64,000 bases of DNA, taken from contig CAVTMN010000007.1 of assembly GCA_963735845.1 (NCBI GenBank), forward strand, positions 197,014-261,013, written 5' to 3'. Under the pieces are notes generated by a model, which saw only the letters and a list, made by a program, of their open reading frames with translations, was not told the origin of the DNA and did not search any database. This document shows, piece by piece, positions 3,604 to 49,772 of this stretch (within the stretch, counting starts at the first letter, position 1; every line of letters begins with the position of its first letter). Both the position numbers and the translations under genes were made by a program. This stretch comes from Vulcanimicrobiota bacterium. GTDB lineage: Bacteria > Vulcanimicrobiota > Vulcanimicrobiia > Vulcanimicrobiales > Vulcanimicrobiaceae.

Positions 3604-3634
3604 GGCAGGACAGCCCGCGGCTGAAAAAGGTTAC

Positions 3635-5657: not shown

Positions 5658-6289
5658 GTTCGAATGCGAGCCACTCTGGGGGAGGTAGCCCCTCTCCGAC
5701 GCCGACGAACCCGGTCGATATCCCCCTTTTCGAAGGCGCCAGCGTGCTTTCGGCGCGCGCGTGGCACGATAAGATTCCGGCGCAAGCGAGCAGCGTCGAG
5801 CGTACCGTTTTCGGACAGGGCGGCGGAACGTACGACGGACACGACGTGGTCGCCGGTACGCAAGCGATGATGCCGGCGCTGGAAGCGTGGCTCGGCGATC
5901 TGACGGCGCATCCTCCGCCGGGCTACTCGATCGCCGTTAGCGGCAACACGGTGGAAGCGGTGCGCACGCATACGCGCGTGCTCGGCGTTGACTTCGTTGC
6001 CCTACAGAGCACCGAAAACGGCAAACGCCACGGCGTCGTCATCATGGCCGTCGATCCGCAAACGCTCGATGAAAAGGCCGGACCGATGCTGCGCCTTATT
6101 GGAAACCTCAAGCACATGCCGAAGGCGTTTCGCGATCCGCTCGACGCTCAGGCTCGCAAGCAGACCGGATTCTCCATCTCAGAAGCGACGAATCCCGACA
6201 CGCCCATCGGGGCGGCGATTGCCGCGCTCGACCAATTGCGTGACTTTGGCGGCCGGGGCATCGTGGTTATCGACGCCGTCAAGAACTAA
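5606..6289 (+). CDS. Hypothetical lipoprotein
   Basis: GTG start, signal peptide with lipobox (AAILLAAC) and an intact 227-aa ORF. I do not recognise the family. Confidence 0.55.
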   Translation: MNYLRPAGVLAAILLAACSNASHSGGGSPSPTPTNPVDIPLFEGASVLSARAWHDKIPAQASSVERTVFGQGGGTYDGHDVVAGTQAMMPALEAWLGDLTAHPPPGYSIAVSGNTVEAVRTHTRVLGVDFVALQSTENGKRHGVVIMAVDPQTLDEKAGPMLRLIGNLKHMPKAFRDPLDAQARKQTGFSISEATNPDTPIGAAIAALDQLRDFGGRGIVVIDAVKN

Positions 6290-27961: not shown

Positions 27962-28641
27962 CCAGCCGGAGCGAGCGATTTCGTGCGGATCATCTCCTCG
28001 AGTAGCGAGAACCACTCGTCCATCCCTGCTCCGGTTCGCGCCGAAAGCTCGAGAATCCGCGCCTCTGGATTGACTTGGCGGATGCTGTGCGATCGCTGCC
28101 GCGCGATCGTAGCCCACGGCCTCGGCGATGTCGATCTTAGTGATCGTCGCGACCTGCGAAGTATTGAACGCCAGCGGATATTTGAGCGGCTTGTCCTCGC
28201 CTTCGGTCACGGAAAAAAGCACGACGCGCAGGTCTTCACCGAGATCGTATTCGGCCGGACAGATCAGGTTGCCGACGTTCTCGATAAAGAGCACGTCGAA
28301 GCGGCGCGTCGATCCAATCGTCGAGTGCCTTCGGCAATCATGTCGGCGTCGAGGCGGCATTCGGCACCGGTGGTGATTTGACGCACGGCGGCGCCGTCGC
28401 GGCTCAAACGTATCGCGTCGTTGTCGGTGGCTTGATCGCCGACGAGCACGCCGACTTTATAGCGAGGTCCAAGCCGTTCCAGCGTGCGTTCGAGCAGCGT
28501 CGTTTTACCGGAGCCGGGGCTCGACAGCACGTTGACGACGAGCGTTCCGCTCGCAGCAAAGCGTTCCCGAAGTCGGTTTGCGATCGCGTCGTTCTTTACC
28601 ATGAGATTACGCGCGATAGCGATGACGCGCATCTGGTTCAT
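27958..28641 (-). CDS. hypB: Hydrogenase nickel-incorporation GTPase HypB; two frame breaks
   Basis: [43 protein letters not shown] / [42 protein letters not shown] / [26 protein letters not shown]. Breaks near ~28330 and ~28085. There is no His-rich or CxxCGC N-terminus. Confidence 0.9.
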
Positions 28642-28985
28642 GCCGGAACCTCCATTGCGACGAGTTCCATTTCACGTCCCCGAACGACGCGAGGCGAGAC
28701 GGTTTCACAGTCAGGGCAGAGTAATCCCGAGCCGGGCCGCGGTGCGCGTTCGCCGAGACACCGCTCGCAGTAGACGACCAGCGGAATCTCTTCGAGGCGC
28801 AGTTGACTGCCTTCGCAGATCGTCTCGGCCGTGACGGCATCCCAGGAGAAGAGCAAGGCGTCGCGGACGATGCCGCTCAGCGCTCCGATGCGGACGTGGA
28901 CCGCATTGACGCGGTCGATCCCCTGCTCGCGGGCGGTCGTTTCGACGCCCTCTAAGAGACTGAGCGCTACCGAGATCTCGTGCAA
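28638..28985 (-). CDS. hypA: Hydrogenase nickel-insertion protein HypA
   Basis: TTG 28985 is preceded by AAGGAAGG at 7 nt and gives the canonical MHEIS N-terminus. Zn site CERC...CPDC. ATGA overlap with hypB. Confidence 0.85.
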   Translation of the reverse strand: MHEISVALSLLEGVETTAREQGIDRVNAVHVRIGALSGIVRDALLFSWDAVTAETICEGSQLRLEEIPLVVYCERCLGERAPRPGSGLLCPDCETVSPRVVRGREMELVAMEVPA

Positions 28986-29027
28986 ACGTTCGCCTTCCTT
29001 GCGACAGATCGGTCGAGCATTAACCAT

Positions 29028-29370
29028 AACCGTTGGCGGGGGATTTGAAAAGCGGGTTCAGCGCCGGTGACCCGCCGGGTGCTCGCTCACTCGTAACCGT
29101 TCGGTAACGCCCTTTCGCCTGCCGGTTGCCTACGGAATTTAGGGCGCGCGTTCGCTCGGGAGCGGCCGTTCGCGCAGAGCCTCAGCGAATCTCAAAAGCC
29201 GGCGGGTGCAGTAACAATTCGGTAACCGATTTGTGCGCATTTCCCCGATAAAACAGCAGCCGCACACCCTTGTAATTCGCAATTGTTTTCACTAGCCTGA
29301 TTAGTACGGTGTCCTGCGCGCCGCTGCGCGAGGTTCGGTTTTGCGGCGCATTACGTGTGAGGATAATTGC
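29028..29370. promoter_or_regulatory. Divergent hypA / hydrogenase structural-gene control region
   Basis: 343-nt non-coding gap. TTCGGTAAC occurs twice (29100-29108 and 29218-29226). The second copy sits inside the near-palindrome AATTCGGTAACCGATTT (29216-29232). A sigma70-like TTGTAA (29270-29275), 17-nt spacer and TAGCCT (29293-29298) lie upstream of ATG 29371. Confidence 0.35.
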
Positions 29371-30392
29371 ATGGCGGAAACAGTCGTAAACGTCCTCTGG
29401 ATCCCGGCCGGACTTAGCTGCGACGGCGATTCGGTAGCGCTAACGGGCGCGATCGCAGCCTAGCATCGAGGAGATCGCCCTCGGCGCCCTTCCCGGACTG
29501 CCCCCCGTCAAGTTCCACTGGCCGCTGATCGAGTTTAGTTTGGGCGGCTCGGAGTTTCTCGAGGCCTTTTTCAAGGCCGAACGCGGCGAGCTCGACCCGT
29601 TCGTTTTAGTGATCGAAGGCTCGATCGCCAACGAAGAGATCAAAAAAGAAGGCTACTTCACGGGCTTTGGCAACGCGCCGGGAACCGATCAGCCGATTAC
29701 GTTCAGCGGTTGGATCGATCGCTTATCGCCCAAGAGCGTGGGCCATTTTGGCCGCTGGAACGTGCGCGACGTACGGCGGCATCCATGCGATGGCCGGCAA
29801 TCCGACCGGAGCGATGGGCATTCTCGATTATCTCGGCTGCGACTGGAAATCGAGCGCGGGCGTTCCCATCGTTTGCGTACCCGGATGTCCGATCCAGCCG
29901 GACAATCTCTCGGAAACGATTCTCTATCTGCTTTGGCAGGCTGCAGGACGAGCTCCGATGATTCCCACTCGACGACGCGGGCCGGCCGACCTGGCTCTTC
30001 GGCAACACCGTGCACGAAGGTTGCGATCGGGCCGGTTACTACGAGCAGGGCGAGTTCGCCACGGAATACGATTCGCCCACGTGCTTGGTCAAGCTCGGCT
30101 GCTGGGGACCGGTCGTTAAGTGCAACGTTCCCAAGCGCGGCTGGATGGGCGGCGTCGGAGGCTGTCCCAACGTCGGCGGAATCTGCATCGGCTGCACGAT
30201 GCCGGGCTTCCCCGACAAGTTCATGCCGTTCATGGACGAGCCGCCGGGCGGCAAGATCTCGTCGACGGTCACGCACCGCGACCGGCACGGTCGATCAAGG
30301 CATTGCGCAACTTCACGACGGCAACGCTCGACAAGGAGCCGAGTTGGCGCCATAAGGGCAAGCAGCTCACGACGGGCTACATTAAAGGCTGA
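29371..30392 (+). CDS. hhyS: [NiFe]-hydrogenase small subunit, group 1h/5 type (no Tat signal); about four frame breaks
   Basis: GAGGA lies upstream of ATG 29371. The stitched sequence reads: MAETVVNVLWIPAGLSCDGDSVALTGA / QPSIEEIALGALPGLPPVKFHWPLIEF..DPFVLVIEGSI / AILAAGTCATYGGIHAMAGNPTGAMGILDYLG..VCVPGCPIQPDN / WLFGNTVHEGCDRAGYYEQGEF..VKLGCWGPVVKCNV..GGCPNVGGICIGCTMPGFPDKFMPFMD / ALRNFTTATLDKEPSWRHK. Breaks near ~29450, ~29740, ~29965 and ~30275. Confidence 0.9.
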
Positions 30393-30412
30393 CGACGGAG
30401 CGTACGAGAACG

Positions 30413-32208
30413 ATGGCTATTAAAGATCTTCCCGGCACCGTCACCGGAACTCAGCCTTCGCGGCTGGTCGAGATGTCGTGGGATCCGATTACGCGGATCG
30501 TCGGAAGCCTCGGAATCTACACGAAGATCGACTTCCAGAAGAAGATCGTCGCCGAATGCCACGCGACCTCGTCGATCTTCCGCGGCTACAGCATCTTCAT
30601 GAACGGCAAAGATCCGCGCGACGCGCACTTCATCACGTCGCGCATCTGCGGAATCTGCGGCGACAACCACTGCGTCTGCTCGGTCTACGCGCAGAACATG
30701 GCGTTCGGCGTGCGGCCGCCGGCGATGGGCGAGTGGATCATGAATCTCGGCGAAGCCGCCGAGTACATGTTCGATCACAACATCTTTCAGGAGAATCTCG
30801 TCGGCGTCGACTACTGCGAGAAGATGGTTCGCGAGACCAATCCGAGCGTTTGGGAGAAAGCGAAGAAGACCGAAGCGCCGAACGCCGAGAATTCACGGCT
30901 ACAAAACGATCGCCGACATCATGACGTCGCTCAACCCGTTTACCGGAGACTTCTACCGGCAAGCACTGCAGATCAGCCGCTACACGCGCGAGATGTTCTG
31001 CCTGATGGAAGGGCGCCACGTGCATCCGTCGACGCTCTATGCCGGCGGAACGGGAACGGTCGCGACGCAGCAGCTCTTCACCGACTACTACTCGCGGCTC
31101 ATGCGCTACATCGAATACATGAAGGTCTGCGTGCCGCTGCACGACGATCTCTTCGACTTCTGGTACCAGGCGCTGCCCGGATACGAGCATAACGGCGAGC
31201 GGCGCATCTTGCTGGGCTGCTGGGGCGCGTTCCAAGATCCCGACCATTGCGACTTCCAGTATAAGAACATGACGCAACTGGGGGCGCCAGATGTTCGTGA
31301 CGCCGGGCGTCGTCGTCGACGGGAAGCTGGTGACCAACGATCTCGTCGCAGATCAATCTCGGCGATTCGCATTCTGCTCGGCCATTCGTACTACGACGAT
31401 TGGGAGAACGAGGAGATCTTCGTTCCTCAAGATCCGCTCGGCAATCCGGTCGACCGGCGTCATCCGTGGAACATGCACACGCTGCCGACGCCCAAGAAAC
31501 GCGACTTCGCCAACAAGTACAGCTGGGTGATGTCGCCGCGCTGGTTCGACGGCAAGGATTATCTTGCGCTCGATACCGGCGGCGGCGCCATCGCGCGCCT
31601 CTGGTCGACCGCGCTCTCCGGTTTGGTGGACATGGGCGGCTACGTCAAGGCGACCGGCAACAGCGTGCAAGATCAATTTGCCCAAGAGCGCGTTCAGCGG
31701 GCCGGTTTCCTTCGAGTGGAAGGTGCCGAAGTGGTCGAACACGCTGGAGCGCAATCGCGCGCGCACGTACTTCCAAGCGTACAGCGCCGCAGCGCGCTGT
31801 TCTTCCTCGATAAAGCCTTCGAGGAACTCAACGCCGGCAGAACGCGTTCGTGGGAGCCGTTCACGGTGCCGAAGGAGGCGATCGGCTGCGGTTTTACCGA
31901 GGCAGTGCGCGGGCGTTCTCTCGCATCACATGGTCATCCGCGACGGCAAGATCGCCAACTATCATCCGTGGCCGCCGACGCCGTGGAACGGGAACCCGCG
32001 CGACATCTACGGAACTCCGGGACCGTACGAAGACGCGGTGCAGAACACGCCGATTCACGAGGAGAACGGACCGGACTCTTTCAAGGGCATCGACATCATG
32101 CGCGCGGTGCGCAGCTTCGATCCCTGTCTGCCGTGCGGCGTTCACATGTATCTGGGCGAAGGGAAGAGCATCGAGACGGTCCATTCACCGCTCGCGCCGT
32201 TCGGATAA
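30413..32208 (+). CDS. hhyL: [NiFe]-hydrogenase large subunit, group 1h/5 type; about six frame breaks
   Basis: N-terminal Ni-binding motif HFITSRICGICGDNH and C-terminal RSFDPCLPCGVHMY. Conserved blocks appear alternately in ORFs 30413.., 30921.., 31291.. and 31564... Breaks near ~30895, ~31285, ~31350, ~31670, ~31795 and ~31915. Confidence 0.92.
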
Positions 32209-32218
32209 ACGTCAAGGG

Positions 32219-32763
32219 ATGAGCTCCGACGTCGCTGCCGTTGGAAGGCGGATCGAAGAGCTGCTCGCTGGTTTCGGCACGCCTGGGGAGCACGGCGAAG
32301 CCCGCGAGCGGGCGGAGGAGCTCGTTCGGACGATCGTTACGCTGTACGGTGAGGGACTCGAACGTCTGCTCACGATCGTGCACGCCGAGCTTGGCGAGCG
32401 TTCCGACGAGCTCTTCGGACGGATCTGCGAAGACAGGCTCGTCGAGGGGCTCCTCTGCCTGCACGGATTGCATCCCGTCTCGCTCGAGGACCGCATCGAG
32501 GCACGCGATGCAATCGGTGTTGCCGTACATCCGGTCGCACCACGGAAACATGGAGCTCTCGCGGATCGACGGCGACGTCGTCTATCTTGCGCCTCGAGGG
32601 CAGCTGCGACGGCTGCGCCGCCTCGGCCTCGACGCTCAAGCAGGCCGTCGAACGCGCCATTCTGGAACGCGCGCCGGAGATTCGGGAAGTGCGCGCCGAG
32701 GAAAGCCTGCTCGCGCCGAGCGGCTTGCCGGAAACCTCGCTCCGGGTCGTCGCACGGGTGTGA
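32219..32763 (+). CDS. NifU-C-terminal-domain protein of the hydrogenase cluster; two frame breaks
   Basis: MSSDVAAVGRRIEELL...LHGLHPVSLEDRIEA / PYIRSHHGNMELSRIDGDVVYL / RLEGSCDGCAASASTLKQAVERAILERAPEI. Breaks near ~32500 and ~32590. Confidence 0.7.
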
Positions 32764-33404
32764 GTGATGTGAATAACGGTGGAGACAATCAGGCGCTGCT
32801 GCAGCGCATGCTGCGCAAGCGCCCGCCGCCCGGCGAGCGCTGTGACTTCTGCTCGGCGCCGCTTGCGCCGGAGCACAGCCATCTCATCGAGCTTGCCGCG
32901 CGGCGGATTCTCTGCTCCTGCCGGCCCTGCTACATCGTCTTCGAACCGGAAGGCGCCGCAGTCGGGCGATACCGTCCGATTCCCGAGCGTTACCTCGAGC
33001 TCGCGGATTTCGCGCTCGAAGATGCGACATGGGACGCGCTCGCCATTCCGATCGGTCTAGCTTTCCTCTTTTACAACTCGCTGGAAAAGAAGATGGTCGC
33101 CTTTTATCCCAGTCCGGTCGGCGCGACCGAATCGTTGCTGCCGCTCGATACGTGGGGCGAGATCGCGGCGGCCAACCCCGTTCTGTCGACGTTGAGTCCC
33201 GACGTCGAAGCGATCCTGATACAACGCTCCGCGAGAGCGGCCGCGCTGCTTCATCGTGCCGATCGACGCCGCCTACGAGCTGGTCGGCACGATCCGGAGC
33301 ACGTGGAAGGGCTTCGACGGCGGCGAGGAGGCGCACCGCCGCATCGGCGAGTTCTTCGACAAGGTCGAGGAACGGGCGCGCGGCAGCGTGACGCGCGCAC
33401 GTGA
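32760..33404 (+). CDS. Conserved hydrogenase-cluster protein (DUF5947-like, tentative); two frame breaks
   Basis: GTG 32760 is in a GTGA overlap. ERCDFCSAPLAPEHSHLIELAARRILCSCRPCYIVFE...AFYPSPVGATESLLPLDTW.. / CFIVPIDAAYELVGTIRSTWKGFDGGEE. Confidence 0.55.
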   Translation: MSDVNNGGDNQALLQRMLRKRPPPGERCDFCSAPLAPEHSHLIELAARRILCSCRPCYIVFEPEGAAVGRYRPIPERYLELADFALEDATWDALAIPIGLAFLFYNSLEKKMVAFYPSPVGATESLLPLDTWGEIAAANPVLSTLSPDVEAILIQRSARAAALLHRADRRRLRAGRHDPEHVEGLRRRRGGAPPHRRVLRQGRGTGARQRDART

Positions 33405-33405
33405 C

Positions 33406-34044
33406 ATGATCGATCTCTCGTTTAGCATTACCGGCGCTCGCGTCGATCGCTATGCAGCGTCGCCGTGCATCCTGCTGCGAGTTGCGCGTGCAGGAGCGAA
33501 CCGGTGCACGCGTGGGCGCGATCGCGCTGCGGGCGCAGATTCAGCTCGAGGTCGCGCGCCGGCGCTACCTCCCTGAAGAGAGCGCGCTGCTCGCCGAACT
33601 CTTCGGCGAGCCGTCGCGTTACGCGCAAACGCTCAAACCGATGCTCTGGACACACGTCGCGCAGACGGTGCTGGCATTCCAAGGCGAAGGCGAGTTCGAT
33701 TTGCCGGTGCCCTGCAGCTACGATTTCGAAGTAGCGTCGAATAAGTATCTGGCGTCGCTGCAGGAAGGCGCGATACCCATCAACCTGCTCTTCAGCGGCG
33801 CGGTCTTCGTAGACGGGCCGGACGCCGTTACGCCGGAGTTCGTCCCGTGGAGTTGCGAGGCGCGCTACGCGCTCCCGGTGACGCTGTGGCGCGAAGCGAT
33901 GGAGGCTTTCTTCCCCAACTCCGCATGGATCCGCGTCAATCGCGACCTCTTCGACGAACTGCGGCGCTTCAAGACGGCGACCGGCTTCCGACGTGGGACG
34001 CCGCGCTCGAACGCCTCTGCGAGCTGGCACGGGTGAAGTCGTGA
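33406..34044 (+). CDS. Conserved hydrogenase-cluster protein (DUF6084-like, tentative); two frame breaks
   Basis: MIDLSFSITGARVDRYAASP / ALRAQIQLEVARRRYLPEESALLAELFGEPSRYAQTLKPMLWTHV...FSGAVF.. / TWDAALERLCELARVKS*. Breaks near ~33480 and ~33985. Confidence 0.55.
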
Positions 34045-35323
34045 ACTCAATGGCGCCGGCCCTCGCCGTCGCCAACGCGGTGCTGTACGAAGGCTATATT
34101 CTCTTTCCGTACACCGCGTCGGCAAAGAAGAATCGCATCCGCTGGCAGTTCGGCGTGATCGTGCCGCAGGCGTACGCCGACGGCGGAACGGGCGAGCCGG
34201 CCGAGGCGCAGACCGAAATCTTCGTCGAGCTGCGAAGAGTCGACGCGCGTAACGGTATTGGTCCGCTTTCTCCAAGTCGAGCCGCGCTGGGTTCAACGGC
34301 TCGAAGACGGCGACTTCGTTACGGTCGATGCGCTCGAGATCGATGGGCGTCGCATGGTCACGTTCGACGAAGGCGTCGAACGCGAAGTCGCGCTCTGCGT
34401 CGATCCGGCGATGCCGTCGATCGCCGTTCCGATCGCATTCGGCGCGGAGGAACGGATCGAACCGCTGCACGATGCCGCGGGCAACGCTTCGCGGTCGAAT
34501 TCTTCGCCGGCGCTGGGCGCTGCACGGCTCGGTGACGGTCGATTGCGAGCCGGTGGTCGCGAAGCCGTCGCTGCGCAAACTGCGCGTTCGCATCGCGAAT
34601 GCGTCGGCCGTCGTCGAGGGCGAGCGAAGCTCGGCGCTGCGGACGGCGTTCGTTTCGACGCACACGCTGCTCAATGCCGAGCGCGGCCGTTTTCTCTCGG
34701 TGCTCGACCCGCCGCACGAGGCCGAAACGGAAACCGCCGCGCTGGTCAATCGGCACACCTGGCCGGTTCTGGTCGGCGACGGCGAAGCCGACGCGCAGCG
34801 CTCGCCGCTCGTGCTCTCCTCGCCGATCATTCTGTACGACTTTCCGGCGGTCGCGGCGCAGAGCGAAGGCGATACCTTCGACGCTACCGAGATCGACGAG
34901 CTGATGATGCTGAGCGTGCGCAGCCTCTCCGACGAGGAGCGCGACGAAGCGCGAGCGACCGATCCGCGCGCCCGCGCGATCGTCGAGCGCGCGGAGCGAT
35001 TCGGCGCCGAGGAGCTGACCGAGCTGCACGGCGTGCTCGACATCCCGTCGATGGATTGCGTATTCGTGCAAGGAACGAAGATCGCGAAGGGCTCGGTGGT
35101 TCGGCTCCATCCCAAGCGCCGCGCCGACGTCTGGGATCTCTTTCTCGACGGCAAACTGGCTACGGTGCGCGCCATCCATCAAGACGTCGACAATCAAATG
35201 TACGTCGCGGTGACCGTCGACGACGACCCCGCCAGCGAACTGCACGACTGGTACGGGCGCTCGCTCTTCTTTTATCCCGACGAAGTCGAACCGGCGTCGA
35301 TGGTTGCGGAGAGCTCGGGGTGA
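34041..35323 (+). CDS. Conserved hypothetical protein of the hydrogenase cluster (~425 aa); two or three frame breaks
   Basis: GTGA-coupled start. VANAVLYEGYILFPYTASAKKNRIRWQFGVIVPQ.. / VRFLQVEPRWVQRLEDG.. / ..ILYDFPAVAAQSEGDTFDATEIDELMMLSVRSLSDEERDEA...LHDWYGRSLFFYPDEVEP. Confidence 0.5.
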
Positions 35324-35817
35324 AGCTGCTGGTGGCCGGTATCGGCAACATCTTTTTCGGCGACGACGGATTCGGACCGGAGGTCGCACGCGCACTGGCT
35401 AGCGACGAGTTCCCCGGCGTCAAGATCGAAGACTTCGGCATCCGCGGGCTCCATCTCGCCTACGAGCTGCTCTCGGGCTACGACCGCGCGTTCCTCATCG
35501 ATGCGGTTCCCCGAGGCGGACGGCCCGGCACGCTTTATTTGATCGAGCCGGATTCGCCGCGTTCGGCAACGATGCCCGACGCGCACCGAATGGATCTCGA
35601 AAATGTCTTTGCGTTTCTCGACCTGCTCGGCGGCAAGCCGCCGCCGATTACCCTCATCGGGTGCGAGCCGTCGCAGATCGACGAAGAGATCGGGCTCTCG
35701 CAACCGGTTCGCGAAGTGGTCGTGCCGGCGGCCGACCTCGTGCGCAGACTCCTGAGCGAAACCTTAGCCGCGACCAATGGCGGCGGAAAAGAGAGCAAGG
35801 TATGGTCAGAGGCATAA
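35320..35817 (+). CDS. [NiFe]-hydrogenase maturation endopeptidase (HupD/HyaD/HybD family)
   Basis: GTGA-coupled start. VKLLVAGIGNIFFGDDGFGPEVA...FGIRGLHLAYELL..AFLIDAV...HRMDLENV. The product is intact. Confidence 0.85.
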   Translation: MKLLVAGIGNIFFGDDGFGPEVARALASDEFPGVKIEDFGIRGLHLAYELLSGYDRAFLIDAVPRGGRPGTLYLIEPDSPRSATMPDAHRMDLENVFAFLDLLGGKPPPITLIGCEPSQIDEEIGLSQPVREVVVPAADLVRRLLSETLAATNGGGKESKVWSEA

Positions 35818-36059
35818 TCGTAGGCGCGATTGCCTTCGCAGTTGCATTCGCAGCCGAACGCGTCATTGCCGGCATGCAGCCGGATCTCGATCGGTACGAC
35901 GCAATGCGCAAGATGTCGGGTGAGGAGCCGCTTCCCAAAGAGCTGCTCTCGACGGTTGGATCGCTGTTCTCCGGGTCGGTGGACAAGAGCGCCGTTTCCT
36001 CGCTGATCGACTCTCTCACCAACGACGCCGTACGCTACGCAAAGATGCGAGGCATGTGA
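35802..36059 (+). CDS. Small protein with one N-terminal hydrophobic helix
   Basis: ATG 35802 overlaps the protease gene by 16 nt. MVRGIIVGAIAFAVAFAAERVIAG..., 85 aa. Confidence 0.45.
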   Translation: MVRGIIVGAIAFAVAFAAERVIAGMQPDLDRYDAMRKMSGEEPLPKELLSTVGSLFSGSVDKSAVSSLIDSLTNDAVRYAKMRGM

Positions 36060-36598
36060 ATCGAATGGCCGCGCAGGCGGAAACGGTCACCCGCTACGAC
36101 GTCGATTCGGCAGACTCTTCGCTGACGATTGACGCCCGATCGACGCTGCACGCCGTGCGAGCGGCGGCCTCGGGGCTCACCGGATACGTCGTTGCGGGCT
36201 GGAACTCCGACGGCAGCGTGGCCGCTGCCCCGGCCCCGATCGTACACGTCGAGTTTCCCCTCGACCAGGTTCGGTCCGGCAACCCGATGCAGGATCGCGA
36301 GATGCGTCGTCTGGTCGACGCGGGAAGATTCCCCAAAGCAAGCGGCGATCTTCGCAGCGTTGACTTGATTGCACCACCGGGTCGTTACCGGGCCAGCGGC
36401 GAGATCACCCTGGTGGGCCGCACGCGCACCTACGCCGGCGAGTTTACGATGACAAACGACGGGGGGATCGTTACCGTCGAAGGCGAGTTCAGCCTCGATA
36501 TCCGCGACTTTGGCCTCAAACCGCCGAGCTTGCTGATACTCAAGGTCGATCCCGTCTTACGCGTGATCTTGCGGCTAGTTGCGAGGAAGGGCGCGTGA
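36056..36598 (+). CDS. YceI-like (polyisoprenoid/lipid-binding beta-barrel) domain protein, copy 1
   Basis: GTGA-coupled. RYDVDSADSSLTIDARSTLHAVRAAASGLTGYV..VRSGNPMQDREMRRLVDAGRFPKA..YRASGEITLVGRTRTY..SLDIRDFGLKPP follows the YceI pattern seen in the canonical copy at 49221..49772. Confidence 0.6.
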   Translation: MNRMAAQAETVTRYDVDSADSSLTIDARSTLHAVRAAASGLTGYVVAGWNSDGSVAAAPAPIVHVEFPLDQVRSGNPMQDREMRRLVDAGRFPKASGDLRSVDLIAPPGRYRASGEITLVGRTRTYAGEFTMTNDGGIVTVEGEFSLDIRDFGLKPPSLLILKVDPVLRVILRLVARKGA

Positions 36599-37173
36599 CG
36601 GTTATCGAAGAGCGATGCGACGGGCGTGTTCAATTGAAAGTCATGGCAGAAAAGCCGAACTACGAACGCTTCGATGTTGCGAGCACCGACTCGTCGCTGA
36701 CGTTCTTTGCGACTTCGACCCTCTTTCCGGTGTACGGAAAAGCGACCGAGATGACCGGCTACGTCGAGGCGGCTTGGCACGAGAACGGCACGCTGGCCGT
36801 CGATCCGCCGCCGCGGATGTACGTCGAGCTCAAGGTCGAGAGCCTGCGCACCGGCAACGAGCTGCAGGACCGCGAGATGTGGAAGCTCGTCGATAGCAAG
36901 CGGTTTCCCAAGATCGTCGGAGAGCTGCGCGAGCTGAGCGCGGCTGCGCTACCAGGGCGCTACACTGCCGCGGGCAATATCACGCTGGCCGGCTTGGCGC
37001 GCCGCTACGAAGGCGAGCTGTTGCCTTCCCGCGATGGCGATTTAGTGCGAATCGCCGGCGAGATCAACGTTGACGTGCGCGACTTTGGATTGAAGTCGAT
37101 GAACCTGCTCGTGCTCAGCGTCGAACCGCTGGTGCGCGTGCGCCTGCGCATGGTCGCGCGTAAGAAAGGGTAG
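36595..37173 (+). CDS. YceI-like domain protein, copy 2 (tandem paralogue)
   Basis: GTGA-coupled. RFDVASTDSSLTFFATSTLFPVYGKATEMTGYV..LRTGNELQDREMWKLVDSKRFPKI..YTAAGNITLAGLARRY..NVDVRDFGLKSM aligns with copy 1 throughout. Confidence 0.6.
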   Translation: MTVIEERCDGRVQLKVMAEKPNYERFDVASTDSSLTFFATSTLFPVYGKATEMTGYVEAAWHENGTLAVDPPPRMYVELKVESLRTGNELQDREMWKLVDSKRFPKIVGELRELSAAALPGRYTAAGNITLAGLARRYEGELLPSRDGDLVRIAGEINVDVRDFGLKSMNLLVLSVEPLVRVRLRMVARKKG

Positions 37174-37181
37174 AGGCCGCT

Positions 37182-37460
37182 ATGTGTTTGGCCATTCCCG
37201 GCCGCATCATCGAAATTTCGCCCGAGCAGTCGGCGCTGGCGAAGGTCGACGTGGCCGGCGTGCGGCGCAACGTCAACATCAGCCTCCTCGTGGACGAGGG
37301 CGTGCAATCCGGGGACTGGGTCTTGATCCACGTCGGATTTGCCATGAGTAAGATCGAGGAATCGCAGGCGCGCGATCAGCTGCGCATGCTCGCGGCGCTG
37401 GGTGAAGACGAGATGGCAATGGACGAGATACGGGGTTATACGTTTGCCGAACGCGAGTGA
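37182..37460 (+). CDS. hypC: Hydrogenase assembly chaperone HypC/HupF
   Basis: MCLAIPGRIIEI...GDWVLIHVGFAM is the canonical HypC N-terminus and core. Confidence 0.9.
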   Translation: MCLAIPGRIIEISPEQSALAKVDVAGVRRNVNISLLVDEGVQSGDWVLIHVGFAMSKIEESQARDQLRMLAALGEDEMAMDEIRGYTFAERE

Positions 37461-37654: not shown

Positions 37655-38767
37655 ATGAAGTTCGTCGACGAGTTTCGCGACCCGCAGCTCATTCGCAATG
37701 TTTCGCGCGAAATCGGCCGGCTGGCCGATTCCGATCGCCACTACCGCATCATGGAGGTCTGCGGCGGGCATACCCACGCTATTTACCGGCACGGCCTCAA
37801 GAATCTGCTGCCGCCCAACGTCGAACTGATTCACGGACCGGGATGTCCGGTCTGCGTCTTGCCGATGGGGCGCATCGACGACGGTCTGGCGATCGCCGAA
37901 CAGCGCGACGTAATCATGACCGCGTTCGGCGATATGATGCGCGTTCCCGGAACGCGGGGAACGCCGCTCGAGCTCAAGGCGCGCGGCGTGGATATCCGGA
38001 TGGTGTATTCGCCGCTGGACGCGCTGCGCATCGCTCAAAACACACCCGATAAACACGTCTTTTTCTTCGCCATCGGCTTCGAAACGACGGCACCGTCGAC
38101 GGCGTTGACGCTGGCACGCGCGAAGGCGCTGGGGATTCGCAACTTTTCCGTGTTCTCCAATCACGTCACGATCGTTCCGGCGATTCGCGCGATTTTGGAT
38201 TCGCCCGATATGCGTCTCGATGCGTTCGTCGGCCCGGGACACGTTTCGACGGTAACCGGATGCCGGCCGTACGAGTTCATCGCGCGCGACTACGGCAAGC
38301 CCGTCGTCATCTCGGGCTTCGAGCCGCTCGACATCCTCGAGTCGATCCTGATGATCTTGCGGCAGCTGCGCGATAAGGAGTCGCGCGTCGAGAATCAGTA
38401 TCGCCGCATCGTTCCCTGGGAAGGCAACTTGCCGGCGCTGGCGGCAATCGGCGAAACCTTCGAGCTGCGGCCGTATTTCGAGTGGCGCGGCTTAGGATTC
38501 ATCTCGCAGTCGGCGCTGAAAGTCTCCAAGGCCTACGCGCAGTGGGATTCGGAGGTGCAGTTCGAGGTGCCCGGCGTGCGCGTCACCGATCCGAAGGCGG
38601 CGCAGTGCGGCGAGGTGCTCAAAGGCGTGCTCAAGCCGCCGCAGTGCAAGCTCTTTGGAAAAGAGTGCAATCCCGAGCATCCCATCGGCGCGCTGATGGT
38701 CTCGAGCGAGGGTGCCTGCGCGGCCTACTATCGTTACGTGCACCTCAACGAGTCGGTGACGGCGTAG
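37655..38767 (+). CDS. hypD: Hydrogenase maturation protein HypD
   Basis: MKFVDEFRDP..IMEVCGGHTH..HGPGCPVCV..FFAIGFETTAP..GPGHVS..SGFEP. The 370 aa are intact. Confidence 0.93.
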   Translation: MKFVDEFRDPQLIRNVSREIGRLADSDRHYRIMEVCGGHTHAIYRHGLKNLLPPNVELIHGPGCPVCVLPMGRIDDGLAIAEQRDVIMTAFGDMMRVPGTRGTPLELKARGVDIRMVYSPLDALRIAQNTPDKHVFFFAIGFETTAPSTALTLARAKALGIRNFSVFSNHVTIVPAIRAILDSPDMRLDAFVGPGHVSTVTGCRPYEFIARDYGKPVVISGFEPLDILESILMILRQLRDKESRVENQYRRIVPWEGNLPALAAIGETFELRPYFEWRGLGFISQSALKVSKAYAQWDSEVQFEVPGVRVTDPKAAQCGEVLKGVLKPPQCKLFGKECNPEHPIGALMVSSEGACAAYYRYVHLNESVTA

Positions 38768-38779
38768 AGGTCCGCAGGC

Positions 38780-39829
38780 ATGGATACCATCGAACGCGCC
38801 GTGCCGCGGGTGCGTTTCGCCGACAGTCAAATCGAAATGGCGCACGGTGCCGGCGGCAAAGCCTCGCGGCGTTTGGTCGAAGGCCTTTTCGTTCCATTGC
38901 TCTCCAACCCAATTCTGGAGACGCTCTCCGACGCCGCCATCTCACATTTCAACGGCTCGCGGATTGCGACGACCGCCGACGCCTACGTCGTCAAGCCGCT
39001 GCGTTTCCCCGGTGGGTCGATCGGTGAGCTAGCCGTGAACGGAACGGTCAACGACTTGGCCGTCTCCGGTGCCAAGCCGCTCGGCCTCATGGCGGCGTTC
39101 ATTCTCGAGGCCGGCCTGACCGGCGACACGCTGCGAGCCGAGGTCGAAGCGATGGCGGCGGCGGCGGCGCGTGCCGAGGTTGCGATCGTCGGCGGTGACA
39201 CCAAGGTCGTCGAGCACGGAATGGCCGATGGAATGTACGTCACGACCTTCGGGTTCGGCGAAGTCGATGCGCGCGCACATCTCGGGCCGGCGCGAGTTCG
39301 CGAGGGCGATCGGGTGCTGCTCTCGGGCCCCATCGGCGATCACGGCATCACCATTCTGCTCGCGCGCGGCGAGCTCGATCTCGAAGCCGACTTGGCATCG
39401 GACACGCGCTCGGTCGCGCCATTCGTCGACGCGCTGCTCGATTCGGCCGGGGATGCGCTGCACTGGATGCGCGATCCGACGCGCGGCGGCGTCGCCACGG
39501 CACTCAACGAGCTGGTGCATGCGACCGAATTCGGTATAACGCTCTTCGAAGAAACGATTCCGCTGCGCGACGAAGTGCGCGGAGCCTGCGAGATTCTCGG
39601 CCTCGATCCGTTGCACATCGCCAACGAAGGACAGCTTCTTGCCGTTGTCGCGCCCGACCACGCCGATGCGGCGCTGGCAGCGATGCAGGCCGTACCGGGC
39701 GGCGAAGGTGCCGTCTGCATCGGTGAAGTGAGGTCGAAACCGGCGCGCGCGGTGCTGGCGGTGACGAGCTACGGTGGAAGCCGCATCATCGACATGCTCG
39801 TCGGTGACCCTCTTCCACGCATATGCTGA
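38780..39829 (+). CDS. hypE: Hydrogenase maturation protein HypE
   Basis: AIR-synthase-like fold sequence with the diagnostic C-terminal ..DPLPRIC*. The 349 aa are intact. Confidence 0.93.
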   Translation: MDTIERAVPRVRFADSQIEMAHGAGGKASRRLVEGLFVPLLSNPILETLSDAAISHFNGSRIATTADAYVVKPLRFPGGSIGELAVNGTVNDLAVSGAKPLGLMAAFILEAGLTGDTLRAEVEAMAAAAARAEVAIVGGDTKVVEHGMADGMYVTTFGFGEVDARAHLGPARVREGDRVLLSGPIGDHGITILLARGELDLEADLASDTRSVAPFVDALLDSAGDALHWMRDPTRGGVATALNELVHATEFGITLFEETIPLRDEVRGACEILGLDPLHIANEGQLLAVVAPDHADAALAAMQAVPGGEGAVCIGEVRSKPARAVLAVTSYGGSRIIDMLVGDPLPRIC

Positions 39830-41020
39830 CGCACGAACCGTCGCTGCGGAAACTCGAGCGATGGATGCGCACAGCGCTTCGAGGAACGCGATGCCGTCTC
39901 CGAGACGTTCTTCCCGCAGCAAGCGCGGCCGCTGGCTCTGGCCTGCCGGCAGACGTTCGAGCGGTTTCGCCGCGGCGGCCGTTTGCTGGCATTTGGAAGA
40001 GGCGCCTACGCGACCGACGCGCAGCACGTCTCGGTGGAGTTCGTTCACCCCGTCATCGTCGGAAAGCGCGCGCTGCCGGCGATGGATTTGAGCTTGGCTT
40101 TCGCGCCGTGGATCGACGCGATTCTCGATCCGAATGATATCGTGATGGGCTTCGGTCCGCCCGAAGGCGACCCCGAGGTTATGCGCGTGCTCGAGCGAGC
40201 GCACGACCGCGGCGCGCTCACCTTTGCGCTACCCGGAGAGAAGGCCGATTATGCCGTAGCGGCTCCCAGTACCGATCCGCACGTGCATCAAGAGATGATC
40301 GAGATTCTCTGTCACACGCTATACGAAACCGTGCACGTTTTTTTCGAGCACGACGAGATGGGACACGACGTCGGCGCGTCGAGCTTTCTCTATCCGTTTT
40401 TGGGCGAACGCGGCGGATCGCAGGATTCGCTGGTGGACGAAGTCGCCGCCTCAATCCTCATGAAGGCACAAGATGCGCGTCGTTTGCGCGGCGAGGTCGT
40501 CGCGAGCCAGGCCCCCGCGATGGCGCGGGCCGTAACGGCAATCGCCCGCGAGCTCCAGTCGGGCGGCAAGCTCATCCTCTTCGGTAACGGGGGCTCGGCA
40601 ACCGACGCGACGGATTGGGCGCTGGACTGCGTGATTCCCGAAGGAGACGTTCGTCCGATTCCGGCCGTTTCGCTGGCGCTCGAACCGGCCATCCTTACGG
40701 CCGTTGCCAACGACGTCGGCACCGAGGTCATCTTCCTGCGCCAGCTCGTCGCGCAAGCGCGTCCGCACGACGTGGCCATCGCGCTCTCGACCAGCGGCGG
40801 ATCGAAGAACGTCGTCGCGGCACTCGAAGAGGCGCGCAAACGCGAGATGCTCACCATCGCGCTGCTCGGATACGACGGCGGCGAGATCGTTCGCCGCGGG
40901 CTGGCCGACATTCCGATCGTCGTTCACAGCGATTACATCCCGCGGATTCAAGAAGTGCAGGGAAGCATCTATCACGTCATGCGCGAGGCGCTCGATAGGC
41001 TCGGCCGCGATGCCGCTTGA
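39823..41020 (+). CDS. Double SIS-domain (GmhA/sedoheptulose-7-P-isomerase-like) protein; one frame break
   Basis: ATG 39823 overlaps the hypE stop. The break near ~39875 leads into ..RFRRGGRLLAFGRGAYATDAQHVSVEFVHPVIVGKRALPA.. and a second SIS unit ..GGKLILFGNGGSATDATDWALD..ALSTSGGSKNV. Confidence 0.7.
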
Positions 41021-41249
41021 GCTTTATGGGACGCGTTCGTGTCCCTATACCGCCGAACTGCGCTCCGAACTGCAGTGGGACGGCAAGCCGTTCGTCGAGT
41101 ACGACGTCGAAGCCGACGCCGGCGCGCTCCGGCGTCTCTTCGCGCTCGTCAGCGGCTCGGTCAGCGTGCCGGTGCTCGTCGAAGACGGGCAGGTCATACA
41201 GGTCGGCTGGAACGGTCAAGGCTGTTACGTAGCCGCCGCACGGACGTGA
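41010..41249 (+). CDS. Glutaredoxin/NrdH-fold small protein (CPYT motif)
   Basis: MPLELYGTRSCPYTAELRSEL..FVEYDVEAD..VPVLVEDGQVIQVGWNGQGCYV. It overlaps the SIS gene by 11 nt and is GTGA-coupled to hypF. Confidence 0.6.
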   Translation: MPLELYGTRSCPYTAELRSELQWDGKPFVEYDVEADAGALRRLFALVSGSVSVPVLVEDGQVIQVGWNGQGCYVAAART

Positions 41250-43484
41250 TCGAGGCCCGGCACGTACGCATCACCGGGATCGTGCAGGGCGTCGGCTTCC
41301 GCCCGTTCGTCTACCGGCTCGCCCGCGCGCACGGCCTGCACGGCTGGGTGCTCAACGCCGAGACCGGCGTCGAGATACACGTCGAAGGGGCACCATCAGC
41401 GCTGCCAGGTTTTCTCGGTGCAATCGAATCACAGGCGCCCGCCGCGTCGCGCATCGCCTCGTTCGACATCGTTCCGACGCTGGTGTCGGGATTCGACGAC
41501 TTCACCATTCGCGAGAGCGTGCGAACGAGCCGCCCGACGGTGCGCGTCTCGCCGGATTTGCCGGTCTGCGAGGATTGCTTGCGCGAAATGGGCGACCCGA
41601 ACGACCGCCGCTTCGGTTACCCGTACATAAACTGCACCAACTGCGGGCCGCGCTACAGCATCATTCTAGGTTTGCCGTACGACCGTCCGCAGACGACGAT
41701 GCGCGACTGGCCGATGTGCGAGCGCTGTGCCGCCGAATATCACGATCCGCTCGACCGCCGCTTTCACGCGCAGCCCGTCGCGTGTCCCGACTGCGGGCCA
41801 TCGTACTATTTGACGGTCGACGGCGTCACGGAGCGCGGGGACGCGGCGGTTTCTCGCGCCGCAGCGCTGCTGCGCGAGGGTGCGATCGTCGCGATCAAAG
41901 GTCTGGGCGGCTACCACTTGGCTTGCGACGCAACGCAGCCCGAGGCGGTCGCGCGCGCTGCGCGAACGAAAGTATCGAAAAGAGCGGCCCTTTGCGGTGA
42001 TGACGCGCGATTTAGAATCGGCCGCAGCATTGGTGGACCTCTCGCCGGAACACGAACGCCTGCTGCAATCCATGCAGCGGCCGATCGTGCTGGCTCCGGC
42101 AAAGGTTGAGTTAGAGGGCGTCGCGCCGGAGAATCGCGACTACGGCGTCATGCTGCCGTACACGCCGCTGCATCATTTGCTCTTCCGGCACGGCGCGCCC
42201 AGCGTGCTGGTGATGACGAGCGCGAACCGCTCCAGCGAACCGATCGCGTACGCCGATGACGACGCGTTCGAGCGGCTCTCCGGAATCGCCGACGCGTTTT
42301 TGACCGGCGAGCGCGAGATCGCGCGCCGCGTCGACGACTCGGTGGCAGCGGTCGGTCCGTACGGCCCGGTCGTGCTCCGTCACGCGCGCGGAGGCGCGCC
42401 GGCTGCGATCGCCCGGCTACCGACGCGCCGTCCGACGCTTTGCACGGGCGCCGATTTGAAGAACGCGGTTACGCTGGTCGTCGACGGGCAAGCATTTACG
42501 AGCCAGCATATCGGCGATCTCGATCACTACGGATCGTTCGCGGCGTTCAAAGAAACGATCGCCGATCTCTGCACGATGTACGACGTGCCGATGGGCGAGC
42601 TTCTGGTCGTCCACGACGCGCATCCGGAATATGCATCGACCCAGTACGCTCGCACGCTTCCGGGCGAACATCGAGCCGTACAGCATCATCGCGCGCACGT
42701 CGCCAGCGTGCTGGTCGAACGCGAGGCGTTCGATACGCGCGTCGCCGGGATCGCTTTCGACGGAACTGGTTACGGCGACGACGGAACGATTTGGGGTGGA
42801 GAGATCTTCACCGGCAGCTTGCGCGAGGGCCTAACGCGTGCCGTTTGGCTGCGTGAAGCCAAGCTACCCGGCGGCGACGCCGCCGCGCGCTATCCGGTGC
42901 AAGCGGCGGCCGGCTTTTTGAGCGAGCTCGACGATTTGCCCGATCTTACCGCCGCGCCTTTCGACTTCCCGGAACGTTACACCAAAGCGAAGCGGTTAAC
43001 CGAGAGCGGCATCCGTACGTTTACCACGACGTCGGTCGGCCGGCTCTTCGACACGGTGGCCGCGCTGCTGGGCTTCACGCGTCCGATCACGTTCGAAGGG
43101 CAGGCGGCGATGTGGGTCGAGCACCTCGCCTGGTCGGACGCGAGCGAAGATAGCTATCCTTTCCCCGTCGTCGCTGCGCGGCTGGACTTTCGCCCGCTGC
43201 TGGCGGCCGTGGTCGCCGATCGCCGGCGCGGCCGCGACGTGCGCGAGATCGCGGGCGCCTTTCATCGCGCGCTTGCGGACGCGATCGCGAGCGCCGTCGA
43301 GATGCTCGAACCAAAGCAGATCGTTGCGTCGGGCGGCGTCTTCCAGAACGCACTGCTGGTCGAACTGCTCGCCCAGCGTTTCGGCGACCGGCTTTGGATC
43401 AACCAAAAGGTTCCCGCCAACGACGGCGGCATCAGCCTCGGCCAGGCGGGCATCGCCGCCGTTTACTCAGGCACGACCGCTTAG
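41246..43484 (+). CDS. hypF: Carbamoyltransferase HypF; one frame break
   Basis: Acylphosphatase domain (RITGIVQGVGFRPFVYRLA), two Zn-finger pairs (CEDCLREM..INCTNCGPRYS; CERCAAEY..ACPDCGP), YrdC-like (IKGLGGYHLACD) and Kae1-like C-terminal half. The break is near ~41950. Confidence 0.9.
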
Positions 43485-49220: not shown

Positions 49221-49772
49221 TTACGGTTGTAAGATCGCCTCAACGTTGAGCTCGATGCGAACCTCGTCTCCAACGACGACACCGCCGGTTTCGAGTGCGG
49301 CGTTCCAAGTCAGCCCGAAGTCTTTGCGATTGACCGTGGTGTGCGCGGCATAACCAACGCGCGTTCCGCCCCACGGATCGCTGGTGCGCCCTTCGAAGGT
49401 TGCCGTCAACGCGACCTCGCGTGTGACGCCGTGGATAGTGAGGTTTCCGTGGATCGTAAACTCGTCCGGAGTTCCTTGGATGCGGGTGCTCTCGAACGTC
49501 AGCTCGGGATAGTTCTCGACGTCGAAAAAATCGGCCGACCGCAGATGCGCGTCGCGTTGCTCTTCGCGCGTATCTAGTGAAGCCGCCTCGATTCGCGCCG
49601 CGATCGCTTGAGGAAGATCGCTGCCCGGCGCGACCTCGATCCGGCCGTCGAAGTTGGTAAAGCGGCCGCGGACCTTGGTAATCATGAGATGGCGCACCAC
49701 GAACTCGATGGTTGTGTGCGCCCGGTCGAGCGAATAGACGCTCGTTTGCTGTTGTGTGGCGGTGGTCGTCAT
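49221..49772 (-). CDS. yceI: YceI-family protein (canonical)
   Basis: YSLDRAHTTIEFVVRHLMITKVRGRFTNFDG..LDTREEQRDAHLRSADFFDVENYPELTFES..GNLTIHGVTREV..NRKDFGLTWN. Confidence 0.85.
   Translation of the reverse strand: MTTTATQQQTSVYSLDRAHTTIEFVVRHLMITKVRGRFTNFDGRIEVAPGSDLPQAIAARIEAASLDTREEQRDAHLRSADFFDVENYPELTFESTRIQGTPDEFTIHGNLTIHGVTREVALTATFEGRTSDPWGGTRVGYAAHTTVNRKDFGLTWNAALETGGVVVGDEVRIELNVEAILQP

Follow-up and report, generated by a model that had tools for sequence, protein, structure and literature searches.

Membrane-helix peptide and two YceI-type barrel proteins encoded in a group 1h [NiFe]-hydrogenase operon of Vulcanimicrobiota, and their possible link to the membrane and the quinone pool

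Group 1h [NiFe]-hydrogenases account for most of the atmospheric H2 that soils take up biologically, and they sustain dormant bacteria as well as desert and Antarctic communities. In this study, a 64,000-nucleotide (nt) stretch from a Vulcanimicrobiota bacterium (contig CAVTMN010000007.1, positions 197,014 to 261,013), hereafter the window, was analyzed for three consecutive genes at 35802-37173 on the + strand, which lie inside the operon of such a hydrogenase. These open reading frames (ORFs), ORF1 to ORF3, encode a small protein with one membrane helix and two YceI-like barrel proteins. All position numbers refer to the whole window unless another locus is named.

The 1h enzymes are membrane-associated and coupled to respiration, and they have no transmembrane segment, twin-arginine (Tat) signal, cytochrome b, or identified redox partner (10.1101/769216; PMC7174314). 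In the unrelated group 2a hydrogenase Huc, menaquinone is carried 94 Å from the membrane through a hydrophobic tube made by an extra subunit, HucM (PMC10017518). The trio resembles HucM in being encoded, as a small extra protein is in Huc, with a Tat-less [NiFe]-hydrogenase that oxidizes H2 from air; HucM links its soluble enzyme to the membrane and thereby to menaquinone (PMC10017518). However, HucM is a coiled-coil scaffold of 188-189 amino acids (aa), whereas the trio consists of a transmembrane peptide and separate beta-barrels; there is no relationship in sequence or fold, and the likeness is an analogy only. In groups 1a-1e, HyaC/HupC-type cytochrome b anchors provide membrane attachment and electron delivery to quinone, which is the role considered here for the trio. 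Unlike those systems, neither the hydrogenase cluster of the window nor the other 1h clusters examined encoded a haem-binding multi-helix protein.

As for the YceI family, most of the solved barrels carry an isoprenoid in their tunnel (octaprenyl phosphate, octaprenylphenol, or ubiquinone-8), and a family member from Neisseria meningitidis purifies with ubiquinone-8 (PMC9113575). In Proteobacteria, YceI genes are generally linked to a membrane cytochrome b561, the proposed reducer of the bound quinone (PMC9113575). A literature search lying mostly outside subscription journals found nothing that ties YceI, or any part of the trio, to 1h hydrogenases.

The three genes and their products

ORF1 (35802..36059, +) starts with ATG and encodes 85 aa with an N-terminal membrane helix. 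Its start shares 16 nt with the 3′ end of the preceding gene (35320..35817, +; stop at 35817), which encodes a HycI/HupD-type hydrogenase maturation endopeptidase (Pfam HycI, 56.7 bits), lies in one frame, and is 66% identical to the protease of the related locus L002. ORF2 (36056..36598, +; 180 aa, barrel 'A' type) starts with the GTG of ATGTGA, overlapping the ORF1 stop, with GAGG located 4 nt upstream; an alternative ATG at 36065, the start also called in relatives, would give 177 aa. ORF3 (36595..37173, +; 192 aa, barrel 'B' type) starts with the GTG of GTGA, overlapping the ORF2 stop, and is preceded by GAGGAAGG. The next gene, hypC (37182..37460, +; Pfam HupF_HypC, 89.5 bits), follows 8 nt past the ORF3 stop. 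No promoter- or terminator-like sites were detected inside the trio by consensus scanning, the count for the region being not above that of shuffled sequence. The coordinates, strand, and overlaps agree with the original prediction of three coupled genes between the maturation protease and hypC; the overlaps, together with the scan, fit the predicted operon coupling, and nothing points to independent transcription.

The ratio of nonsynonymous to synonymous substitution rates (dN/dS) was calculated against L001, the closest relative, with approximately 90% nucleotide identity. Values of 0.079, 0.091, and 0.062 were obtained for ORF1, ORF2, and ORF3, respectively, and of 0.087 and 0.052 for the flanking protease gene and hypC. 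Such values (0.06-0.09 for the trio) indicate that all three genes are under purifying selection. Because the gene order recurs in every relative examined and dN/dS is low, the trio is far beyond chance; judged from the sequences, the three are real accessory genes, coupled in translation, that belong to a group 1h operon in Eremiobacterota/Vulcanimicrobiota.

Pfam searches (YceI, PF04264; gathering score 23.7) gave 47.9 bits for ORF2 (E 2.5e-12) and 39.1 bits for ORF3 (E 1.2e-9), the matches beginning after polar sequence at residue 14 and residue 28, respectively. The two proteins were 49% identical over 176 residues, which bears out the paralogy claimed for them. Both had also been said to align with the window's canonical YceI (49221-49772, - strand), which scores 174.9 bits to the same profile; at the pairwise level this part of the claim holds only weakly, with 21-26% identity. 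An AlphaFold2 (AF2) model of ORF3 built from 45 sequences had a mean predicted local distance difference test score (pLDDT) of 81.8 and displayed a beta-barrel plus a helix at residues 89-100; the N-terminal 20 residues (MTVIEER...) are conserved and were poorly modelled. In a Foldseek comparison of this model with the PDB, the top 17 matches were all YceI proteins, with E-values down to 7e-9 and template modelling scores (TM-scores) of 0.59-0.74. The top entries were 1wub, 5ixh, 5ixg, 7bwl, and 1y0g, and the proteins matched included TT1927b, BcnA, BcnB, PA0423, E. coli YceI, the S. degradans polyisoprenoid-binding domain, and HP1286. Profile scores and the modelled fold thus support the predicted YceI assignment, and ORF2 and ORF3 are paralogous YceI-fold eight-stranded barrels, the fold being modelled for ORF3 and inferred for ORF2 from its identity to ORF3.

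Like T. thermophilus TT1927b (1WUB), E. coli YceI (1Y0G), B. cenocepacia BcnA/BcnB (5IXH/5IXG), and N. meningitidis GNA1030, these proteins match the YceI profile and have, in the ORF3 model, an eight-stranded barrel plus helix. Identity to the solved members was only 13-19%, and there is no PDB relative by sequence; searching the PDB sequences with the YceI-like profile returned only a spurious match to EtpA. The subfamily carries the signature ...SLRTGNxLQDREMWKLIDSKRFPKI... and ...DVRDFGLK..., in which T-G-N-x-L-Q-D-R-E-M-W-K-L-I-D-S-K-R-F-P occupies the place of the R-D-x-H-L motif of canonical YceI. An exhaustive phmmer search of 1.84 billion representative proteins matched 530 clusters with E<=1e-3, of which 206 reached E<=1e-10, and 165 homologues of ORF3 were found. 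Since only 530 matches were obtained and ordinary YceI proteins were mostly too distant to be found, the subfamily is a small, distinct branch. Neither ORF2 nor ORF3 has a signal peptide or N-terminal hydrophobic segment, which suggests that both are cytoplasmic, as is the enzyme; this is unlike E. coli YceI and BcnA, which are periplasmic or secreted. They are also partnered, in a hydrogenase operon, with a one-helix peptide, whereas the YceI proteins of Proteobacteria are partnered with cytochrome b561. These features point to new, cytoplasmic, hydrogenase-dedicated members of the known YceI family. The canonical YceI of the window, which begins MTTTATQQQTSVYSLD, also lacks a signal peptide. 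A cytochrome b561 gene was looked for next to it and none was present, the neighbors encoding an M28 peptidase and a LigB-type dioxygenase.

ORF1 has the single hydrophobic N-terminal helix originally ascribed to it, with a Kyte-Doolittle hydrophobicity of 2.13 over 19 residues from residue 5 and a conserved G-x-x-x-G and F-x-x-x-F pattern. Its AF2 model, of moderate confidence (pLDDT 70.6), consists of four helices (residues 2-24, 26-39, 44-59, and 62-82). Directly after the membrane helix lies the motif D28-x-x-R-Y-x-x-M-R-x-M38, which is repeated at the C-terminus as D75-x-x-R-Y-x-x-M-R-x-M85 (NDAVRYAKMRGM), and the chain ends in Met. A helical linker of approximately 36 residues separates the two copies, and 47 residues follow copy 1 to the chain end. 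In 39 sequences of the ORF1 family, residues D28, R31, Y32, R36, M38, D75, R78, Y79, and M85 were invariant.

In Pfam, ORF1 gave no match above threshold and no match at E<=1 to DUF6893 (PF21833, gathering score 24.6 bits; 'DUF6893 family small protein' at NCBI), and the hits in Pfam and NCBIfam were noise only. Its link to this family comes instead from intergenic ORFs in other loci, a regular-expression scan (see below), and hhalign. Each short gap after the protease gene contained a tiny ORF encoding a hydrophobic helix followed by ...(S/L)(I/L)PD(I/V)(K/R)RY(L/M)(R/K)(I/M)R(S/R/N)M-stop. Alignment of the ORF1 family with the DUF6893 alignment gave a probability of 94.5% and an E-value of 7.7e-8 over only 16 columns, in which ORF1 residues 23-38 (AGMQPDLDRYDAMRKM) were paired with the DUF6893 C-terminus. 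DUF6893 proteins are 33-55 aa long, with one membrane helix and a C-terminal D-x-x-R-Y-x-x-h-R-x-M. ORF1 is like them in having a single helix and then this signature, a terminal Met, and a gene that adjoins the maturation protease gene, and differs in its length of 85 aa and in its signature being internal and then repeated at the C-terminus. By these traits, ORF1 is identified as an extended, two-motif, divergent relative of DUF6893. No PDB chain was matched by the DUF6893 profile.

Distribution of the peptide and the barrels

A species-level survey was performed with an HhyL alignment, one genome per species being taken, and the 80 best loci, those closest to the Eremiobacterota HhyL and belonging to several phyla, were analyzed with the addition of three plasmid-borne clusters. 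In these 83 loci, 25,285 stop-to-stop segments were scanned for a C-terminal [RK][YFW]xx[LMIV][RKS]x[ML] together with a hydrophobic 17-mer. The strict pattern matched 82 segments, and 78 of them were located within 1.3 kb of a protease gene; the other four, away from the protease, also resemble family members. With a relaxed pattern, a DUF6893-type peptide was found beside the protease in 77 of the 80 1h loci that span the region.

Short peptides from pHG1, Mycobacterium, and Streptomyces scored 38.9-48.8 bits with Pfam DUF6893, and a 68-aa acidobacterial peptide scored 22.1 bits. The acidobacterial peptides (67-98 aa) are extended as well: their first motif (NPLVRRYLG) is degenerate and the one at the C-terminus canonical. 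The pHG1 peptide (L008) is MKGFLKYLVLPALVVALLANIKDIRRYIRIRSM, with its stop at 15800, and that of an M. intracellulare plasmid (L009) has its stop at 15372; the peptide was also seen in the other Mycobacterium loci L059 and L072 and in the Rhodococcus loci L162-L163. In the Rhodococcus and Streptomyces genomes (L162-L165), its gene lies between a gene for a protein of approximately 450 aa and the protease gene, or just past the latter. Some of these peptides bear the name 'DUF6893 family small protein' at NCBI, and the gene is absent from the tables that PLSDB gives for pHG1 and for the plasmids from Mycobacterium and Kitasatospora. No mention of DUF6893 was found in a literature search that included few subscription-journal papers, and its near-universal association with 1h hydrogenases appears to be undiscussed in the searchable literature. 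An extra DUF6893-like peptide was observed on the opposite strand near two acidobacterial clusters, L054 (stop 4498) and L088 (stop 4395).

The loci encoding ORF3 homologues at 58-95% identity displayed one gene order throughout: hhyS, hhyL, and the genes for a NifU-like protein, DUF5947, DUF6084, the approximately 450-aa protein, the protease, the 85/86-aa peptide, and two YceI-like proteins, followed by hypC, hypD, hypE, a SIS-domain gene, in some cases glutaredoxin, and hypF. Orthologues of ORF2 occupied the same position in L001-L007, L011, and L092-L135. When metagenomes were scanned with the barrel alignment, 66 of 70 loci contained hydrogenase genes in this order, with either the trio or the peptide plus one barrel. 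The other four were a 1.2-kb fragment, two matches at only 31% identity, and a copy in L145 (4345-4848) that is 50% identical to ORF3 and the only clear lone barrel of the hydrogenase type, no hydrogenase genes being present within 4-6 kb. The L145 barrel gene has as a neighbor (3185-4018) a gene for a membrane protein with a His-rich loop (HGHGHGHSHYEHGHAHRHGEGLEHVHWHAH) and without a Pfam match. In approximately 20 metagenome loci (L136-L155), the 85-aa peptide is followed by a single barrel, which argues that the pair in the window arose by tandem duplication within its clade.

In the species-level survey, a YceI-like barrel was encoded in 15 of the 80 1h loci and was missing from 65. Between the protease gene and hypC, a barrel pair was present in Eremiobacterota (L011), and a single barrel in Binatia (L027), a 'delta proteobacterium' metagenome-assembled genome (MAG; L015), and the Actinomycetota MAGs L019 (Acidimicrobiales), L034, L062, and L071, with hypA in place of hypC in L071. 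In Microthrixaceae (L018), a YceI-like gene lies upstream of hhyS. Acidobacteriota (L044, L054, L060, L063, L080, L087, and L088) had one or two tandem barrels of a more canonical type, and the three that were run (two from L060 and one from L080) scored 53-66 bits with Pfam YceI. No YceI-like gene was present in the 1h clusters of Streptomyces, Kitasatospora, Actinoplanes, Mycobacterium, Burkholderia/Paraburkholderia, Cupriavidus pHG1, and Methylocystis; in such barrel-less clusters, hypC, hypA, or hypF lies 5-430 nt past the protease gene. A neighbour-joining tree placed the Eremiobacterota barrels together with those of Actinomycetota/Binatia, and those of Acidobacteriota in a separate clade. 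Every barrel gene located between the protease gene and hypC or hypA had a peptide gene directly 5′ of it. YceI genes are present in related 1h clusters, the absence of which had been named beforehand as evidence against the original prediction, and the peptide is nearly universal in 1h clusters while the barrels are lineage-restricted. From these gene contexts, the barrel subfamily appears confined almost wholly to 1h hydrogenase clusters, in which it directly follows the membrane peptide.

Several of the phmmer matches were 320-380 aa long, and among them were proteins (P0238, P0255, P0268, and P0298) in which Pfam recognizes a PadR winged-helix domain at the N-terminus and a YceI-like domain at the C-terminus. 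Genes for PadR-YceI fusions were also found in actinobacterial 1h loci (L018, 5764-7092; L019, 574-1776; L034, 1458-2582; L062, 17671-18765), and in L018 a DUF6893 peptide gene is located directly 5′ of the fusion gene. In a Streptomyces cluster (L164, 7180-7578), a stand-alone PadR gene adjoins DUF6893. The fusions in 1h clusters show that hydrogenase-related regulation, too, makes use of this type of barrel as a module for binding a ligand or partner.

The hydrogenase operon and its frameshifts

Upstream of the trio on the + strand lie the genes for the small (hhyS) and large (hhyL) subunit of the group 1h [NiFe]-hydrogenase (29371..32222), both with frameshifts and with Pfam NiFeSe_Hases matches on fragments. 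They are followed by 1h accessory genes (32219..35308, +) for the NifU-like protein, DUF5947, DUF6084, and the approximately 450-aa protein without known family, all of them frameshifted. Downstream, hypD, hypE, the SIS-domain protein, glutaredoxin, and hypF (37655..43484, +) make up the remainder of the operon; hypA and hypB are divergent and upstream of it. The GC content of the window is approximately 64%. The SIS-domain protein (approximately 395 aa) and glutaredoxin (approximately 77 aa) are encoded between hypE and hypF at 39830-41237, and this pair is kept in both Eremiobacterota and Acidobacteriota clusters.

The orthologous large subunit of L002 scored 1062 bits with HofG of C. necator (PDB 5AA5; group 1h/5, actinobacterial-type) and at most 159 bits with any other solved [NiFe] hydrogenase. 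The N-terminus of HhyS, which begins MAETVVNVLWIPAGLGCDGDS, contains no Tat motif. The type of large subunit, the Tat-less HhyS, and the NifU-like, DUF5947, and DUF6084 genes together place the operon in group 1h, so the enzyme class and the lack of a Tat signal on which the original prediction was built both stand. The closest named homologues were from Candidatus Cybelea and Candidatus Tumulicola, and the best genome locus was from a 'Candidatus Eremiobacteraeota' chromosome; Cybelea is classified in Vulcanimicrobiota (= Eremiobacterota, WPS-2).

Two further arrangements of hydrogenase genes were observed in other phyla. In the 'delta proteobacterium' MAG (L015), a second, divergent hhyS-hhyL pair, 65-71% identical, is located at 3405-6139 (-), on the opposite strand approximately 3 kb upstream of the main 1h cluster. 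In acidobacterial 1h clusters, an orphan HhyS-like paralogue without a large subunit lies upstream (L060, 4836-8634; similar in L044, L054, L087, and L088), and an orphan gene of the L060 type is followed by genes for a multi-PAS histidine kinase and a LuxR-type response regulator. This arrangement may serve H2- or redox-sensing.

Approximately 17 frame-breaking single-base indels were found, mostly at 27900-34500 in the 5′ half of the hydrogenase cluster, and those relative to other genomes cluster at 29-34 kb. By tblastn with intact relatives, the frame changed twice in hypB, four times in hhyS, at least twice in hhyL, twice in each of the genes for the NifU-like protein, DUF6084, and the approximately 450-aa protein, and once in that for DUF5947, the pieces of hhyS and hhyL being spread over three frames. 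No frame change was detected from the protease gene through glutaredoxin, and hypF had one, near 41955-41980. The long-read-style contigs L001 and L011 also have breaks in hhyS/hhyL, at other positions. The conserved segments of the window were 90-96% identical to intact orthologues. Because no gene changes frame in L092, a short-read metagenome contig at a similar distance, the frameshifts are most likely consensus errors of long-read assembly over an extremely conserved region. One such break accounts for an artefactual 995-aa ORF at 25373-28360 (-), in which the C-terminal part of hypB is fused to a large MalT-like regulator; in relatives this regulator matches WHD_MalT faintly to weakly, and L002, L004, and L006 have kept its gene, divergently oriented, upstream of the operon.

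Possible function of the trio

The original prediction was that the trio may tether the enzyme to the membrane or present a quinone or isoprenoid acceptor. We regard either role as plausible. The idea gains plausibility because the module is conserved across phyla, the peptide and barrel genes are strictly adjacent, and ORF1 is akin to DUF6893; it gains further because the 1h enzymes associate with the membrane although no anchor is known for them (10.1101/769216; PMC7174314). A possible explanation, which we prefer while holding it with some doubt, is that the peptide anchor and isoprenoid- or quinone-binding barrels couple the soluble hydrogenase to the membrane and the quinone pool. The helix of ORF1 would lie in the cytoplasmic membrane with the basic signature motifs of the peptide facing the cytoplasm, and the D/R/Y/R/terminal-Met signature would act as a docking element for the hydrogenase or for accessory proteins. 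In the lineage of the window the barrels, which probably pair as an A/B heterodimer, would hold a polyprenyl lipid, the most plausible ligand being a respiratory quinone, and would either present quinone to the enzyme or report on it. In this way, the trio would place a soluble, Tat-less hydrogenase at the membrane, with access to the quinone pool for the enzyme or its sensor. By analogy, the module might correspond in function to the tube that HucM forms in Huc and to the proteobacterial pairs of cytochrome b561 and YceI lipocalin.

Several observations weigh against this coupling role. In the short DUF6893 forms, a cytoplasmic C-terminus is favoured by the arginine-rich signature and the positive-inside rule; ORF1 is about charge-neutral after its helix, so charge does not settle its topology, which is instead deduced from the presumed partners being cytoplasmic. 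ORF1 itself falls below every Pfam threshold. The absence of barrels from 65 of the 80 species-level loci argues that they are not a general requirement for electron transfer; the peptide, nearly universal, is the stronger candidate for an anchor. The position of the trio among maturation genes fits a role in assembly equally well, and the module would be orphaned here if the breaks in the structural genes were real. The notion that the two motifs of ORF1 match the two barrels was rejected, since clusters with a single barrel also have two-motif peptides.

A sensor or regulatory module, in which the barrels bind a lipophilic signal (quinone redox state or a membrane lipid) or the motif of the peptide and modulate hydrogenase activity or expression, is unlikely as an explanation of the trio. 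It would account for the fusion of the same barrel subfamily to PadR in the four proteins and four loci named above, for the peptide gene 5′ of the fusion in L018, and for the PadR gene beside DUF6893 in Streptomyces. However, the barrels of the window have no DNA-binding or signalling domain and are co-translated with structural and maturation genes, and tandem paralogues held at 49% identity suggest a stoichiometric structural complex. That the three proteins act transiently in cofactor insertion, proteolytic processing, or oligomerisation of HhySL appears quite unlikely to us. The trio does lie between the maturation protease and hypC/hypD/hypE, and DUF6893 always adjoins the protease gene, on either side; yet no known step of [NiFe] maturation involves a lipid-binding barrel or a membrane peptide, most 1h clusters have the same maturation set without barrels, and the enzyme is cytoplasmic, with no export step.

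A barrel-held quinone could also quench lipid or oxygen radicals near the O2-exposed hydrogenase, as proposed for BcnA/LcoA. The 1h enzymes operate in air, and BcnA with cytochrome b561 is proposed to detoxify lipid peroxyl radicals via bound ubiquinone-8 (PMC9113575), but that system, found in the periplasm or secreted, works with a haem protein, and the trio shares neither trait; nor does anything account for such protection being placed inside the hydrogenase operon in only some phyla; we consider this explanation very improbable. It is scarcely credible that the genes are hitch-hikers or decaying remnants of a pseudogenised operon. The frameshifts in the structural genes and the lone barrel of L145 could be read in that way; against it, the trio is intact and under strong purifying selection, its synteny is kept in more than 60 loci and across phyla, and the short-read relative with all genes in a single frame points to assembly error. 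For the same reasons, namely that relative and the purifying selection, a trio residing in a dead operon was judged unlikely.

Extended beyond this operon, membrane and quinone coupling would make DUF6893, with ORF1 as an extended form, the missing membrane anchor of 1h hydrogenases, to which the YceI barrel docks in order to shuttle or present menaquinone, and would make the PadR-YceI proteins sensors of the quinone state. This wider proposal is doubtful. If it is true, docking of the barrel would take place in Eremiobacterota, Acidobacteriota, several Actinomycetota lineages (including Acidimicrobiales), and Binatia, the system would be a second, independently evolved answer to the problem that Huc solves with its HucM tube, and the PadR-YceI fusions would control hydrogenase expression as quinone-state sensors.

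The one-helix protein encoded beside almost every 1h enzyme provides a specific gene for the question of how these hydrogenases are linked to the membrane, and the putative quinone-type lipid-binding barrel, hydrogenase-dedicated and present in several abundant soil phyla, provides further ones. Through the peptide and the barrels, how 1h enzymes reach the membrane and the quinone pool becomes directly testable. If the coupling proposed here is true, the range of YceI proteins would grow beyond envelope stress factors to take in partners of a respiratory enzyme located in the cytoplasm.

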